Shown here piece by piece: positions 36,001 through 42,000 of a stretch of DNA of 46,855 nt. The stretch is from Gemmatimonadota bacterium (GTDB lineage Bacteria; Gemmatimonadota; Gemmatimonadetes; Palauibacterales; KS3-K002). Numbering within the stretch: the first letter of the stretch is position 1; every line of letters starts with the position of its first letter. The position numbers are program-made. The stretch lies in the NCBI GenBank assembly GCA_039586795.1, contig JBDHJS010000029.1, positions 1 through 46,855 on the forward strand. Direction: 5' to 3'.

Positions 36001-39000
36001 GAAGCCCTGAGCCTCCTGGACGTCAGGGTTATCCTCTCCCGGCTCCAGGTGCGATACGACGAACCTGAACGCGAAGCCATCCACCACGGCATCGATCGAC
36101 GCCCATCCCCTGAGGATTGGGATCGGCACCTGTCCCATACCGGGGATGTCCACGACTTCCACCACCACGTTGTCGAAGTTGGCGGCTTGCGGATCACTAA
36201 CCGTCACATCACCGCGAGCCAGGATGAAGTCGAAGTCGACGAGCGTGGCTGCCCCCTGCACACCGGTCTCCGGATCGAACAAAGGCACCTGGCCGGCGAA
36301 GTTCTGCACCTGGGCCACCGGAACGTAGTCCACGCCGCGCTCCGCCAGCTCGTTCAGTAGGATCGGCAGAAAGTCTAGGGTCTCTACCCCGGCGGTCGTC
36401 TGAACATCGAAATACGACACCTCGTTCAGGCCGATCAAATGCGGTCGAGCGCCGGCGATCTCGTCCGCCATCGCCTCAGCCCGCTCCGGGTAGTTCGTCG
36501 CCTTGACCTGCTGCCACAGCTGCCACGCGGCAACCGGCAGCGGAAGCTCTGTGCTGAACAAAGCCTCGACCGGCGCCCCCACGTACAGGTTTCGCGTCAT
36601 GACAGTCAGCCGGTCGGACCCAGAATGGCCGAACCATTCTTGAGCAGACGGCTCCACGAACTCGGGCTCGGTCGGGTCCGAATCCTCGCACCCGCAAATC
36701 ATTAGGAGCGCGCACAGCACGGCGACGACCCTCCCGGCAGTGTTGGCTTTCGAGTTGAACATTGAAGGCCTCCTTTGGCAGTGGGGCTGCTCGGCCCGCC
36801 GTGGAACAGCGAGCGTCTTCTCGGAGGCCAAGCTCAGACCCTGCGGTCAAGCAGGAATCAAGTGAGAATGGTGTTGAGAGCCTGTGGTTCAGCTGCGCAG
36901 CCGGGCGATGATCCGGTCCAGCAGGGTAGTCGGGAACGTCCCATCGCGCTCCAAGGTCTCCCGGTGGCGGGTCAAAGCGTCGGCCACTTCGGGGAAGCTC
37001 CCGGGTACGGGCGCGATACTGCCGCCGGGGGCTGTCACCTGTGCGGCCGAGGTGCGGCGCAACAGATCGTCGAGGTCGCGAGCGTCGCGGCCATGGATCA
37101 TGGCGAGCGCCGCTCCAGCCATCAGCAGGTGAGGCAATGCCGAGCCGTCGGGGAGACGGAACTCGATGGTAGGAACGGTCAATTCGCGGCCTGCCTCATC
37201 GGTCGAGGTTATGGGAAGGCGGATCAGAGCGTTGCGATCGTACTCGCCCCAGAAAATGCCGCTCGGCGCTTCCTTCGCCTGGCTCACTCGGATGAACGAG
37301 TCCGGCGATCGGTTGCCAAACGCCATCAGCGCCTCTCCCATTTCCACCAGGCCGCCGATCAGCCAGCGCGCCGCATCGGATAGCCGTCCATCGCCATCAC
37401 GGATCGGCATGTTGCTTCCGTTCGATACCGGGGCGAAGTGGAAGTGCAGTCCGTTACCGGCATGCCCCTGAAGCATCACCGGGTCCGTATTACAGCGCAT
37501 GCCTCTCCTGTGCGCCAGGTTGCGGAGCACCCACTGGGTCAACAAGATGCCGTCGGCCGCGGTGGGCAACGGCGCCAGACCAAGCTCGATCTCGTGTTGC
37601 TCCCATATGACGCCTTCGGTCTCACGTGCCTCGATATATCCGACCTCGCTATGACCGTATTTGACGGGCACACCGATGTCGTGCAGTAAAGCGAGCGCCT
37701 CGCGTCGAAGCTCCTCACCGAACACGAACGGCGCCGTCGCATGATAGCCGCGATCGTCGGCGCCGTAGATGTCCGTCTCGTCCCACCGCTTGCCGAGGAA
37801 GTACTCCACTTCGCCCAGCGCCCACAGCTCGATCCCCGTTTCGTTGCTCAGTCTTTCGTAGGCGCGTCGGACTATGGTATCCGGCGACTGCGGTAGCGGC
37901 GTACCATCGCGACCGGAGTGACTGCACATCAAGACCAGCGACGTTCGCGGCGCGAACGGGTCGATGAATGCGCTCTCGAGGCGCGGTCGTAAGACAATGT
38001 CGGATGCGTCGGTTGGGATGCCGGCGTTGGGGAACAGGCTCGAACCGTCTGCCCGTTCACCCCCTTGAATGATGTCCTTCAGGTGTTCAACGCTGCGCGG
38101 CACGAAGTCGAGCGTCTTCAGCCACCCGTCTCCGCCCACGTGCATCAGGTTGATCAGCACGACCCTTCCGTCGCTGAACAGGCCCGCGAGGTCATCAACG
38201 CTCCATTCGGAGCGCGGTTTCTTCAGTGCATTCTCCAGGCTGTTGCCGAAGGAGATCGGTGTGCTGTTTGCTGGCTTCTCGTTCATCGCCACATCTTCTC
38301 TAAGAGCGCCTGAACTTCAGGCACACCACCTTGAAATACTAGATAGCCGTCGTGCGGTTCGCGCTCAGTCATCTCTCCCGCGACGGTCCTCGTCATCAGC
38401 TCGCGCACGGCTTCCGGATCGTCAGGGTGAAGACCTAGCGCCCAACCCAGTTTGATGTACGCGACCTCGGGGAGCATGTTGGCAAGGGGAACAACACCAA
38501 GTTGCAGGATCTCTCTCCCCGTCTCATAGACATGCATTTGAACAAATCCCCAAAGCGTCTGCAACGTCATGTACAGCTGCACGCCTGCCTCATGAGCACG
38601 TTCCAGCGCCGGATAGATCTTGCGGTTGACGTGACCGAGCCCCGTGCCGGCGATGACGATCCCCTTATAGCCTTTCTCGACGAATGCATCGACCACGTCC
38701 GGGTGCATGCCGGGGTAGTAATAGGTCAAAGTCACTCGCTCTTCAAATGCCGTCTGAACGAGTACGTCGCGATCCCGACGACGTACGGTGTAATCATCCT
38801 TGAGTGTTGTAATCCTCCCCTGATCCACCATGGCTAACGGTATGTCGCCCAGCGTCCGGAAAGTGCTGCGGTACGACGAATGCATCTTTCGCACGCGAGT
38901 CCCGCGGTGCAGCAGATTATACTGATCCGATGTCGGCCCGAACATGCAGACCATAACTTCGGCAATCGGCCCGCGCGCCGCGGTCCAGGTCGCATTGATC

Positions 39001-42000
39001 AGGTTCTGCGCCGCATCCGATGAAGGCCGGTCTGAAGAGCGCTGGCTGCCCACCATCACGATCGGGACGGGTGACCGCTGCACCATGAAGCTCAGAGCGG
39101 CGGCCGTATGGTGCATGGTGTCGGTACCATGCCCAACCACCACTCCGTCGTACCCCTGCCCGACCGCCTCACCTATCTTCTCTGCCAGGATCATATACTG
39201 CTCGGGTCCCATGTTCTCCGAAAAGACGCCAAACAGCTTCTCTGTTTCCAGATTGCAGATGTCCGCCAGCTCCGGGACAGAACCGTAGAGTTCTCCAGGG
39301 CTGAAGGCCGGGATGACCGCTCCAGTCCGATAGTCGAGACGCGAAGCGATAGTACCGCCGGTCCCGAAGAGCTTGACACTCGGTTTGGCCGGATCGGAAG
39401 GGAACGCTTTCTCTGGTATCTTGTAGTGTGCTTCTCGGTATCCGATGCTGTTTAGCGACAGCACCGTATCATGACGCAGGCCGACGTTGTACCCACTACT
39501 CAGTTTGAGCACCAGGTGATTCTCGTCGCTGGTTTCCGACCGCGGTAGAACCAACCCCTCGAAGTCACCGCGCGTCGTTTGGGCCTTCACCTCGCTCCAA
39601 ACCGTGATGCCGAACCGTTTCATGAGTTCGACACACGGGCCGCGATACCCTTTGTATTTATCATCGGACTGGTTCATGGCACGACCTTGATATCGACGCG
39701 CTGCAGCAGCTCTTTCAGTCGCTCGCGTGCGAGCGCTGGGTCGACCCGGCCCACGAAACGTCTCATGATCTCGCCCATGCCCCATCGCAGCACCGACTCC
39801 GCCGGTTTCCCAGCCAACTGCGCGGCGTTCGCCGACACTTCGTCCAGCGCGCGATCGAGCTGTTGCGCATCGTCGTTCTGCCGCTCGTAGCGGGCCAGCA
39901 GCTTTGCCACCGGCGTGCCATCTTCCTCGATGATATCGTCCAGCGCACGTTCCATGGCCTCGAGGCGAATCGCTCCATCTTCCACACGGCGGACCAGCAT
40001 GGATATGCGTTCTGTATCCGGCAGGCTATCGACGGTGTTCTTGCGCAGATGATAAGGAATCCGCTTCTCGAACGCTGCCGCGACGCGACGCGCCGTAGCG
40101 CCGCGTGCCGGCCGCAAGTCGTCAAACAACTCTGCCCAGGGCGCGGAGGCGAGGCGGCGGGCCGCCGCTTCAGTTAGGCCCATTTCCATGTAACGCGCTT
40201 CCCGGGCCCACGGTGAGTCGGGGAGTTCATTCCCCGTCGCGATGATCAACTCATCCGAGATCGGCAGCGGCGGCGTGTCGGTATCCGGATACATCCGGTC
40301 CGGGCCTGGCAGGATACGTTCGAAACCGTTCGTACCATCCGCGAACGCCTGGCGTGTCTCAGAGGGTACTCCTATCAGGGCATCCGCCGCGCGAATGAAC
40401 AGCTCTCGCACAGCCGTGGCCGCATCGCGCTCCGGCATCCAAACGACGACCATCGCATCTCCGCTGTCGGCTCCTAGCTGCTTCTGCAACGCTCGCCACT
40501 GCCGCTGATTGAGGCCATAATCCTCGAGGTCGGAGTGGATCATGAATGGCCTGTGAACCGGGCAGGCGATCACTCTGACTCGATCCGCGAATTCGCGCGC
40601 CATCGTGACACCGGGCTGAGTTCGATGCGCAAGCAACCCCGCGAAGCCCGGTAGCCGAACCGCAATCACCTTGTCGCCGCGATCCAGTGCGTCATGGATC
40701 GGCGCATAGTCAGAAGGACCTAGTTTCGCACCGGCATCGACGACATGAGGCGACGCCTCCCACGGTAGCTCGGCGTCGGGACAAGAAAGCATTTCCTGCG
40801 TGACGCCGCGTCGTTGTAGTTCGGCCCGCACACGCAGAAGATTCAGCTGTCGGTACGCCTCGATGTGCACCAAGCGGGGCAGTCGCCGGTGGTTATCCAC
40901 TCCCTTGAGCTCGACACGCCGGCCGCCCGCGACTGACACGTTCACGTCCTGGCGCGCCGCACCAGGACCACGGCGTACCTTCCCCGTCACGTGCGCGACA
41001 CGAGCCAGCAGTCGTCCGGCGGCCTGCACCTCGAGCGGAGTGAGCAGCTCGGGTTCGGTCACCGCCTCGGTCAACGGCATGCCAAGTCGATCAGTCCGGA
41101 ACGTGATCGAGTGCCCGATATCGGATATCTCCCGGCAGGAATCCTCTTCGAGCGAGAGTTGCCGAATGCTGAGCTCGCGATTCACGCCCAGGTCAGGTTC
41201 GCGGAACGGAATCGAGCCGGTCAAACCCACCATGGCCGTGCGTTGAAAACCGGTGGGGATCGAGCCGTCCAGGTACTGCTTGCGCATCACGTGGAGCTCA
41301 GACACAAGATTGAGATTCAACAGCTGGGCGATCTCGATAGCAACCTGCACCGCCTCGGGGTCGATTACGAACGGCGGCGTGTCGTCCATCTCGTAGGTGC
41401 AGACCGATCCACGTTCCAGCTGGTAAATAATTTCCTTGTTGGTCTTGAACTCCATCAGCGCGGTCCCGTCATACTCTCCCATCTCGCTGAGGGTGGGACG
41501 CATGTGGCGCAAGACCTCAGCATCGTAGCTGTTCACGTAGCGACCGGCCGGGCAGCGACAGAAGAGCTTGGTACGCGTAATCAGCTGCTGATGGACTTCG
41601 AGCCCAGACATGAAACCCAGGACCTGGTAATCCGCAGCCGACAGCTCGCCGAATTCCTTATTGGGAAAGTCCAGTACGGGATCGCGCCGGGGGTTGTGGT
41701 CAGCAGGCGGGCGAATCCCGAATTGGGCAGGTGCTGGATCTTCGCTCATTCGATTGACGCCTCTTTGGCAGACTGTATATATCACTTTGAATCGCTGCGG
41801 GGCCGCCGCTAGGGGCGTGAAACTTACAGCACTTTCAACGCTTCGGGAACATGCGCAATGAGTCATACTTCTAGAAGCTTTCAATTCACGGTTTCCCATG
41901 TCCTACTACCGGTTCTGCTCGCCGTCCTGTGGAGCCAACCCGTCCCAAAAGAACTCAGCCACGCTTCGCCTGCTGGCAACGACGCGATTGTCGCTGACTC

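Follow-up and report, generated by a model that had tools for sequence, protein, structure and literature searches.

The locus analysed here raises the question of what an archaeal-type GatDE amidotransferase does in a bacterium. It lies in the window, by which we mean the whole stretch of 46,855 nucleotides from a Gemmatimonadota bacterium (GCA_039586795.1, contig JBDHJS010000029.1). GatDE has been called an archaea-only enzyme in reviews as late as 2022, and a LUCA scenario has been built on that statement (PMC9499178, PMC2811023). No report of a bacterial GatDE was found in the literature that we searched.

The window contains a three-gene unit, composed of gatE, gatD and a glutamine synthetase (GS) paralog, which runs from position 41749 to 36889 on the minus strand (Table 1). 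The initial annotation had described an intact gatE and gatD in a two-gene operon. Both genes are indeed intact, with open reading frames and scores over their equivalog cut-offs (TIGR00134, NF003107, and TIGR02153); the operon, on the other hand, has three genes, given that the GS-family gene is coupled to gatD by an ATGA overlap between the gatD stop and its own ATG, like the one joining the gatE stop to the gatD ATG. GatE comprises a cradle, an AspRS-like (GAD) insertion, a helical domain, and a YqeY-like tail. The GS paralog scores under every GlnA cut-off in our profile search, and its metal and substrate motifs line up with those of the canonical GlnA from the same genome; it is present family-wide, including genomes with asnA in place of gatDE, and it likely supplies the amide donor for GatDE. 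A promoter and terminator scan of the operon gave chance-level results, and the expression search returned only small-share RNA contigs. The translational coupling and one apparent fusion (P0043) bear only indirectly on whether the two subunits would form a GatD2-GatE2 complex.

Table 1. Coordinates of the gatE-gatD-GS unit and its neighbours in the window.
Feature	Coordinates	Strand	Evidence or remark
gatE: kinase/amidation subunit, 691 aa	39674..41749	-	TIGR00134 415.5 (cut-off 319.55), NF003107 492.5 (cut-off 456)
gatD: asparaginase-fold amide-donor subunit with GatD_N domain, 464 aa	38283..39677	-	TIGR02153 497.7 (cut-off 324)
GS-family gene: divergent glutamine-synthetase paralog, 465 aa	36889..38286	-	PF00120 130.7 bits
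Calcineurin-like phosphoesterase, divergent	41858..43030	+	Synteny anchor on the gatE side; outside operon
Large protein, N-terminus presumably of GGDEF type, named from its motif	31116..35531	+	Synteny anchor on the GS side; outside operon

The window operon encodes a genuine amidotransferase of the GatDE type that belongs to a clade of its own. As had been claimed, its PDB matches are archaeal GatD and GatE: the best by sequence are 1ZQ1 and 2D6F, and an AlphaFold model (pLDDT 90.7) finds the same two entries by fold, with TM values of 0.81-0.82 by target length. GatB models give the window GatE scores of 60-157 against cut-offs of 315-680, and both trees and scores place it nearer GatE than GatB. 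The GAD insertion lies at 351-444 (PF02938, 23.3 bits against a cut-off of 23.4), where it aligns with 1ZQ1 and 2D6F, and the GatD_N domain is recognized by PF18195 (45.9). Residues H53, E201, and E228 of the window GatE correspond to the Mg ligands H15, E157, and E184, columns that are each kept in 129 of 129 GatE sequences of the clade. The GatD motifs GGTIAS, HGTDT, and RKMH are intact in the window protein; over 71 loci, some of them cut by contig ends, GGTIxS was read in 71, RKMH in 68, and HGTDT in 63. Neither GatD nor GatE matched an AsnA or AsnB family in the profile search, and the likeness to asparagine synthetases discussed below concerns the proposed function only.

Two features of archaeal GatE are missing or rare in the clade. 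In the column of Q240, a residue that we assume to be a tRNA contact, the window GatE has D285, and glutamine occurs in 0 of 129 clade sequences vs 102 of 105 archaeal ones; the GXXAXGX tail motif, searched with a loose pattern, was found in 4 of 129 vs 54 of 105 and is absent in the window protein. At matched cradle identity, conservation of the helical and tail domains is about half of that seen in archaeal GatE or in bacterial GatB. Judging from the alignments, RNA binding by the tail probably persists, because the clade tails are full length and the pocket columns are retained (G in 117, M in 101, and G in 105 of 128). Glutamine is missing from the Q240 column of the Thermoplasmata branch as well, but the tail is conserved there, and this GatDE may be the canonical enzyme of those organisms.

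GatE exceeds its cut-off in 10 of the 31 family genomes, the same count as in the initial annotation. All 80 GTDB loci bear bacterial titles, with gatE followed by a co-oriented gatD in 71 of them. At locus L305, gatE and gatD are divergent, gatD being on the minus strand. In our trees, which are quick trees, the window GatE groups in a single clade with sequences from many bacterial phyla and a branch labelled Thermoplasmata; the multi-phylum bacterial clade proposed earlier exists but is not purely bacterial. The clade pairs with Heimdallarchaeota with a support of 83-97. A firm Heimdallarchaeota donor is nevertheless not established: with GatB as outgroup, a topology in which the clade falls outside the other archaea gains 7.3 log units (AU p 0.6), and the mixture tree leaves the root placement open. 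GatDE may have come to its many sediment-type host phyla from a source related to Asgard or Thermoplasmata, or its branch may match the archaeal one in age. A plasmid search returned one haloarchaeal match only.

The textbook role in forming Gln-tRNA(Gln) looks redundant in these organisms, because searches detected GlnRS in 43 of 50 carriers; the enzyme is also encoded in the window genome (contig C87) and in 15 of 15 near-complete family genomes. Canonical GatDE is described only in archaea without GlnRS and acts on tRNA-Gln with A1-U72, whereas these hosts are bacteria and the only tRNA-Gln found in the window genome, tRNA-Gln(UUG) on contig C24, has U1-A72; the CUG isoacceptor was not found in this genome, and assemblies do not always carry a full set of tRNA genes. 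The GlnRS and tRNA-Gln said initially to sit beside the operon share its genome but are not physically adjacent, as there is no tRNA within the window. An archaeal-type (A1-U72) tRNA-Gln partner was ruled out, since none was found beside the operon in 86 loci or in the window genome. A dedicated GluRS was ruled out too: the window genome has two, which is the case family-wide, non-carriers included, and is not tied to gatDE. GatCAB is present in 11 of 12 family carriers and has been cleanly deleted in the window genome, in agreement with the earlier claim: the GatB search matched GatE alone, and the two genes flanking the gatCAB site are about 100 bp apart. The accompanying caveat of an assembly gap is refuted, because these flanking genes adjoin in mid-contig.

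The genomic exchange of gatDE with asnA points to asparagine instead. Among 19 readable family genomes, 10 have gatD and 9 have asnA as the neighbour on the 5' side of the GS paralog; the genomes compared are kin, and these counts are genomes, not independent events. AsnA is found in 0 of 12 family carriers vs 11 of 19 non-carriers (Fisher p 0.001, kin not being independent) and in 3 of 50 GTDB carriers; in two of these three, no gatD match follows gatE in the locus. Locus L306 retains an asnA C-terminal remnant directly after gatD; asnA and gatDE occur together in locus L106, where asnA precedes gatE, and both are present in genome G162. The role is probably other than the textbook one, as the initial annotation held. 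On balance, we lean towards the bacterial GatDE being a glutamine-dependent source of asparagine that replaces AsnA or the GatCAB route.

The class of the record titled Aminicenantes, our second lineage, lends this reading some support. Among its 111 genomes, GatE was found in 67, the GatB pattern in 37, both in 1, and neither in 8. AsnA is encoded in 3 of 5 tested genomes without GatE and GatB and in 0 of 5 tested GatB-only genomes; these GatB-only genomes also have GlnRS in 0 of 5, so the GatE/GatB exclusion tracks GlnRS, which suits a role in glutamine. The same-site asnA swap is not clean in this class, with one shared neighbour only. Canonical chemistry on a new tRNA, in which GatDE would amidate U1-A72 Glu-tRNA(Gln) as a backup of GlnRS or repair the mischarging of a non-discriminating GluRS after GatCAB loss, accommodates this exclusion as well as the equivalog scores, the gatCAB deletion, the two GluRS, the retained tail pocket, an adjoining GS that could provide the donor, and glnS directly after gatD in two genomes (G145 and G148). 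It would nonetheless be a third route in a family that has GlnRS and GatCAB, non-carriers likewise have two GluRS, and the asnA swap is left unexplained; we consider it possible, though rather unlikely.

Neighbouring genes in the relatives fit the asparagine theme: they include GS (4 of 80 loci), asnA, aspS, an Asp:Ala exchanger (twice), and aspartase, and an Asp/Glu racemase gene was seen between gatE and gatD. The exchanger and the aspartase are catabolic, and they would fit a nitrogen shuttle in amino-acid fermenters, where GatD takes ammonia from asparagine, GatE passes it to glutamate (tRNA-bound or free) or another acceptor, and asnA shares the site only through common Asn/Asp metabolism. 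The position of asnA 5' of gatE in L106 is compatible with it, and archaeal GatD is reported to accept Asn as well as Gln (PMC2330236). An asparagine consumer should, however, accompany its maker instead of excluding it, and the 80 loci have no conserved acceptor gene in common, which makes the shuttle improbable. A binning artefact, with archaeal contigs assigned to bacterial genomes, would suit carriers that are all metagenome-assembled and record titles of which some look automatic, but it is refuted by an operon set among bacterial genes in conserved family synteny, several genomes whose gatDE contigs measure 1-4 Mb, a contamination of 0.17% in the window genome, and sequences that form their own clade.

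Returning to GatDE as an asparagine source, the window genome has AsnRS and canonical GS besides GlnRS. AsnRS was found in 46 of 50 carriers and in a count of 79/80, which rules out that Asn-tRNA is made through GatDE alone; a GS-family gene is present in 49 of the 50, so GatDE is not a substitute for GS either. A search for AsnB in the window genome identified six AsnB-like genes that could still make asparagine; the four strong ones are far under the E. coli-type AsnB cut-off, their C-terminal parts alone having been scanned. The glycine that we take to mark non-discriminating AspRS, a signature matched against PDB alignments only, occurs in 12 of 17 sequences of carriers with GatB and in 0 of 17 of carriers without it. 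The AspRS of the window genome has the residues of discriminating PDB enzymes at both positions, and no second AspRS was found there. GatB-only Aminicenantes lack AsnA and have this glycine in 0 of 10 sequences; therefore, either the signature fails there or no such route is needed. The tRNA-Asn(GUU) on contig C93 carries U1-A72, the pair expected for a tRNA-dependent Asn route.

By family chemistry, GatD would free ammonia from the amide donor, the ammonia would travel through a tunnel to GatE, and GatE would phosphorylate the side-chain carboxyl with ATP/Mg and then amidate it. The genomes suggest that the coupled GS paralog would provide glutamine as the donor, that aspartate would be the acceptor, and that AsnRS would take up the product. 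Aspartate not carried on tRNA(Asn) is our tentative choice of acceptor, because of the absent AspRS glycine in carriers without GatB, the discriminating-type AspRS, and the weakly conserved helical and tail domains; Asp-tRNA(Asn) made by a relaxed AspRS seems slightly less likely, and the probable RNA binding by the tail speaks against our choice. In its full form, the proposal of a third kind of asparagine synthetase (glutamine-dependent, acting through aspartyl phosphate, tRNA(Asn)-free, fed by the GS paralog, exchangeable with asnA, and either acquired from relatives of Asgard or Thermoplasmata or dating back as far as the archaeal branch) is put forward as speculative.

Whatever the function, a large bacterial GatDE clade breaks the archaea-only statement. 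If it does make asparagine, this would be an unrecognised route, and auxotrophy calls would change for many uncultured phyla, because these proteins carry the label Glu-tRNA(Gln) amidotransferase in databases; the clade would then also offer a natural test of how GatE chooses its tRNA and amino acid.

Compared with archaeal GatDE (Methanothermobacter thermautotrophicus 2D6F; Pyrococcus abyssi 1ZQ1), the bacterial enzyme shares subunits, domain order, GAD insertion, GatD_N, Mg ligands (129/129), GatD catalytic motifs, and fold. It differs in its bacterial host with GlnRS, AsnRS, and U1-A72 tRNA(Gln), in a Q240 column that is never glutamine, in the lost GXXA tail motif, in helical and tail domains that drift about twice as fast, and in the asnA swap. 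In Bdellovibrio, Deinococcus, and Thermus, GatCAB with a non-discriminating AspRS constitutes an asparagine route (PMC4206432). The resemblance lies in an amidotransferase retained beside GlnRS and AsnRS and read as an asparagine source; here, however, the enzyme is GatD plus GatE, and the single AspRS has discriminating-type residues. AsnA (aspartate-ammonia ligase, TIGR00669) has the same proposed product and occupies the same locus in sister genomes, although the folds of AsnA and AsnB are unrelated to GatDE. AsnB couples a glutaminase to a synthetase, as proposed for GatDE. Both AsnA and AsnB activate aspartate as an adenylate, whereas GatE would use an acyl phosphate.

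Both products of the operon exceed their equivalog cut-offs and their frames are open, which bears out the claim of the initial annotation that an intact GatDE amidotransferase is encoded in a bacterium. The three open frames on the minus strand (gatE, gatD and a glutamine synthetase (GS) paralog, whose motif columns can be aligned to canonical GlnA) are coupled by ATGA overlaps. The top PDB relatives by sequence are the archaeal entries 1ZQ1 and 2D6F, and these are again the structural matches of an AlphaFold model (built on a 67-sequence alignment; mean pLDDT 90.7) in which the tail is folded. 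The close homologues named at NCBI belong to Gemmatimonadota, and the label "GatE" is already attached to these proteins at NCBI and JGI. GatDE here is a real, intact member of its protein family and part of a wide clade.

Features of the gatE-gatD operon and its surroundings in the window
Feature	Coordinates	Strand	Remarks
gatE	41749-39674	-	691 aa; TIGR00134 415.5, cut-off 319.55
gatD	39677-38283	-	464 aa; TIGR02153 497.7, cut-off 324
GS paralog	38286-36889	-	under all GlnA cut-offs
large gene	31116-35531	+	1471 aa; Walker-A-like motif, C-terminal helical repeats; conserved family-wide; N-terminus presumably GGDEF-type, from its motif
carbamate kinase-like and ornithine carbamoyltransferase (OTC)-like genes	27622-29617	-	presumably arginine deiminase type, named from sequence
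ImuB-like Y-family polymerase gene	44871-46448	-	PF00817

The OTC-like gene is syntenic with the locus in G136 and G228; in G227, G201 and G224 this region is also linked to the ImuB-like gene.

The best 150 representatives at 50% identity fall into two tiers by GatE identity to the window protein (about 38-69% and 30-39%), and the upper tier's 38 full-length rows group in a single branch. A GTDB scan with the alignment of this branch gave at least 597 relatives out of 600 stretches. The best 80 of these loci were analysed; each has a bacterial title, and the titles include Fermentibacteria, Krumholzibacteriota, Cloacimonetes, Aminicenantes, Marinimicrobia, Calditrichota, Bacteroidota/Ignavibacteria, Myxococcota and Planctomycetota, in agreement with the annotated spread over many bacterial phyla. 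In 71 of these 80, gatD lies 3' of gatE and is read from the same strand; of the other nine loci, five stop no more than 0.5 kb from the gatE match, and four are longer and have no gatD match. None of the neighbour genes is conserved clade-wide. Occurrence is patchy: 7 of 151 genomes in the window's own class (three unpublished non-carriers, G018, G022 and G142, included), 12 of 31 in the family KS3-K002 (10 over the cut-off, two partial), and 67 of 111 in the class of an Aminicenantes-titled record. A large branch inside the clade, in which two members are labelled Thermoplasmata and one Bacteroidetes, has glnA next after gatE; the loci L304 and L305 of this Thermoplasmata-labelled branch, on low-GC contigs, show this order, and L305 has gatE and gatD in divergent orientation. 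The family genome G215 has two gatD copies (L141, L138), one next to the GS paralog, where gatE is seen only as a C-terminal piece bordering a masked stretch, and the other elsewhere, with an intact gatE. The 969-aa record P0043 holds a whole GatE and an N-terminal part of GatD before going out of frame, as a fusion or an assembly error.

Two origins are possible for the clade, transfer from an Asgard-related lineage or a deep sister branch. Trees of 68, 45 and 46 rows were built by quick searches after rows had been dropped. In the tree that lacks an outgroup, the clade has support 100 and its pairing with Heimdallarchaeota-labelled GatE 97, within a group that also holds the other Asgard-labelled rows (100), and several motifs are common to clade and Heimdall sequences. 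With bacterial GatB as outgroup this pairing has support of 83 and 95; an alternative tree that places all other archaea apart from the clade scores 7.3 log units higher (AU p 0.6), and a mixture tree did not fix the root.

The window's own genome, 97.8% complete, encodes GlnRS, AsnRS, one AspRS, two GluRS and a canonical GlnA outside the window, with one tRNA-Gln and one tRNA-Asn, each U1-A72; the annotated company of GlnRS and a U1-A72 tRNA-Gln thus holds for the genome but not for the window, which contains no tRNA. Neither GatB nor AsnA has a match in this genome. Its tRNA list lacks tRNA-Gln(CUG) and tRNA-Lys(UUU) and includes two 85-nt tRNAs called Gly(GCC), on contigs C22 and C70, with long variable arms and Leu-like D loops. 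Both full GluRS paralogs (C23:16529-17980 and C36:10944-12437) exceed the TIGR00464 cut-off and are common in the family, independently of gatDE. Six of its genes are AsnB-like; on the E. coli-type model (cut-off 499) the four strong ones reach 105-176, only their C-terminal parts being scored, and the neighbours of three are presumably glycosylation or secondary-metabolite genes, as read from N-terminal sequences.

In three relatives, G227 (same genus), G215 and G212, gatA and gatB sit between a PcrA/UvrD helicase gene and a gene of 340 aa; in the own genome the helicase gene and the 340-aa gene lie side by side with some 100 bp between them, at 44.2-44.3 kb of a contig of 145.6 kb that contains no N. 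The gatCAB genes are deleted here, so that the noted lack of GatCAB stands and its suspected explanation as an assembly gap falls. The loss is recent: 29 of 31 family genomes, all 11 other carriers (genomes with clade gatE) among them, give GatB-pattern matches to the GatE model.

The textbook role is conversion of Glu-tRNA(Gln) to Gln-tRNA(Gln). Of 50 GTDB carriers of unstated completeness, sampled for spread from the best 80, 43 yielded GlnRS, 46 AsnRS, 49 a GS-family gene and 22 GatB; GlnRS is also present in 26 of 34 family and class genomes, and in 15 of the 15 that are at least 90% complete. Judged from gene content, this role looks redundant, and we consider it rather unlikely, although glnS immediately follows gatD in G145 and G148, which counts against a role in asparagine supply.

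Supply of asparagine is the function towards which we lean. The family region is conserved as phosphoesterase, variable slot, GS paralog and large GGDEF-type gene, and in the 19 genomes where the 5' neighbour of the GS paralog could be read, this gene is either gatD (10) or asnA (nine), with no third state. Four of the nine asnA genes are co-directional and five divergent; three of four whole products tested pass TIGR00669, the fourth being 0.6 bit short. A Nudix hydrolase gene recurs near the slot with either gatDE or asnA (L137, L140, L143, L150, L153, L156, L157), joined at some of these loci by a small tRNA-binding (Trbp/CsaA-like) gene. Genome-wide, AsnA occurs in 0/12 family carriers versus 11/19 non-carriers (nine from the search, two more seen as contig-end fragments); Fisher values for this exclusion (p 0.001) are overstated because kin genomes are not independent. 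The eight family genomes with neither gatDE nor AsnA are 65-91% complete. AsnA was found in 3 of the 50 GTDB carriers, two of these three loci having no gatD match. In the 111 Aminicenantes-class genomes, GatE is present in 67, the GatB pattern in 37, both in one and neither in eight; AsnA occurs in 3/5 tested "neither" genomes, in 0/5 tested GatB-only genomes and in none of five carriers (G167, G187, G189, G190, G191). The GatE/GatB exclusion may follow gain of GlnRS, because GlnRS is found in 0/5 GatB-only genomes there. The metagenome locus L306 retains a C-terminal asnA remnant just downstream of gatD, the 91 first-neighbour ORFs of the 80 loci include GS (4), asnA, aspS, an Asp:Ala exchanger (2) and aspartase, and G148 has an Asp/Glu racemase gene between gatE and gatD. 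Against asparagine supply, asnA occurs together with gatDE in L106 and G162, and the six AsnB-like genes of the own genome count on this side too. A nitrogen shuttle, as a further reading of the operon, seems quite improbable.

From these gene swaps, aspartate would be the acceptor and asparagine the product; the chemistry proposed follows that of the family, as given in PMC2330236. The GS paralog would make glutamine, GatD would release ammonia from it, GatE would phosphorylate the aspartate beta-carboxyl and then amidate it, and AsnRS would charge the resulting asparagine. Asparagine supply without tRNA(Asn) is a tentative possibility, rated only slightly above supply on tRNA(Asn).

Each of the 129 clade sequences keeps the RQD arginine and the Mg ligands described in PMC2330236. 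At cradle identity of 0.65-0.75, helical and tail domains of clade GatE retain identities of 0.26 and 0.21, versus 0.56 and 0.43 in archaeal-tier GatE (a bin of mostly Heimdall pairs) and 0.43 and 0.45 in 26 bacterial GatB (a set that may include L024 from the unpublished G022). By these alignments, the tRNA-side domains of clade GatE are drifting. The GXXA tail motif is found in 4/129 clade sequences versus 54/105, and the column of M. thermautotrophicus Q240, which we take to contact tRNA, is Q in 0/129 versus 102/105. In the Thermoplasmata branch this Q is lost while tail identity stays high (0.49 at cradle 0.75-0.85); by itself the Q change is therefore no marker of new function. The tail is retained: its pocket, tied to D-loop binding in PMC2811023, is kept as M662, G667, V669 and P671 of the window protein, mapped by spacing, and its columns hold G in 117, M in 101 and G in 105 of 128 sequences.

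The own-genome AspRS has L and D where the non-discriminating P. aeruginosa AspRS (4WJ3) has H and G, the L being shared with E. coli and Thermus entries. The glycine occurs in 12/17 AspRS sequences from GTDB carriers with GatB and 0/17 from those without, the pattern having failed to read 12 of 46 sequences. In carriers that have lost GatCAB, AspRS thus looks discriminating despite the presence of GatDE, and this would speak against Asp-tRNA(Asn) as a GatDE substrate. The tRNA-bound side is favoured by the kept tail pocket, by the retained tail and by the absence of this glycine in GatB-only Aminicenantes genomes (0/10); S. aureus AspRS is non-discriminating without these signature residues. 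G151, G152 and G153 (Fermentibacteria/Aegiribacteria titles) have no bacterial-type AspRS match at E 1e-55, and G152 has two AsnRS-family matches.

GatDE is called archaeal-only or archaeal-specific in PMC2811023, PMC2330236, PMC2943598 and PMC9499178, and no paper on bacterial GatDE was found in the literature searched (subscription journals lie mostly outside it, and genome supplements listing gatE could exist). The context of canonical function is lacking here, in a host with GlnRS, a U1-A72 tRNA-Gln and a GatE without the GXXA tail motif. In PMC2943598, archaeal GatDE showed no binding to non-discriminating AspRS. According to PMC4206432, no bacterium was known to carry the two routes to Gln-tRNA(Gln) together, and GatCAB beside GlnRS and AsnRS is read as a source of asparagine.
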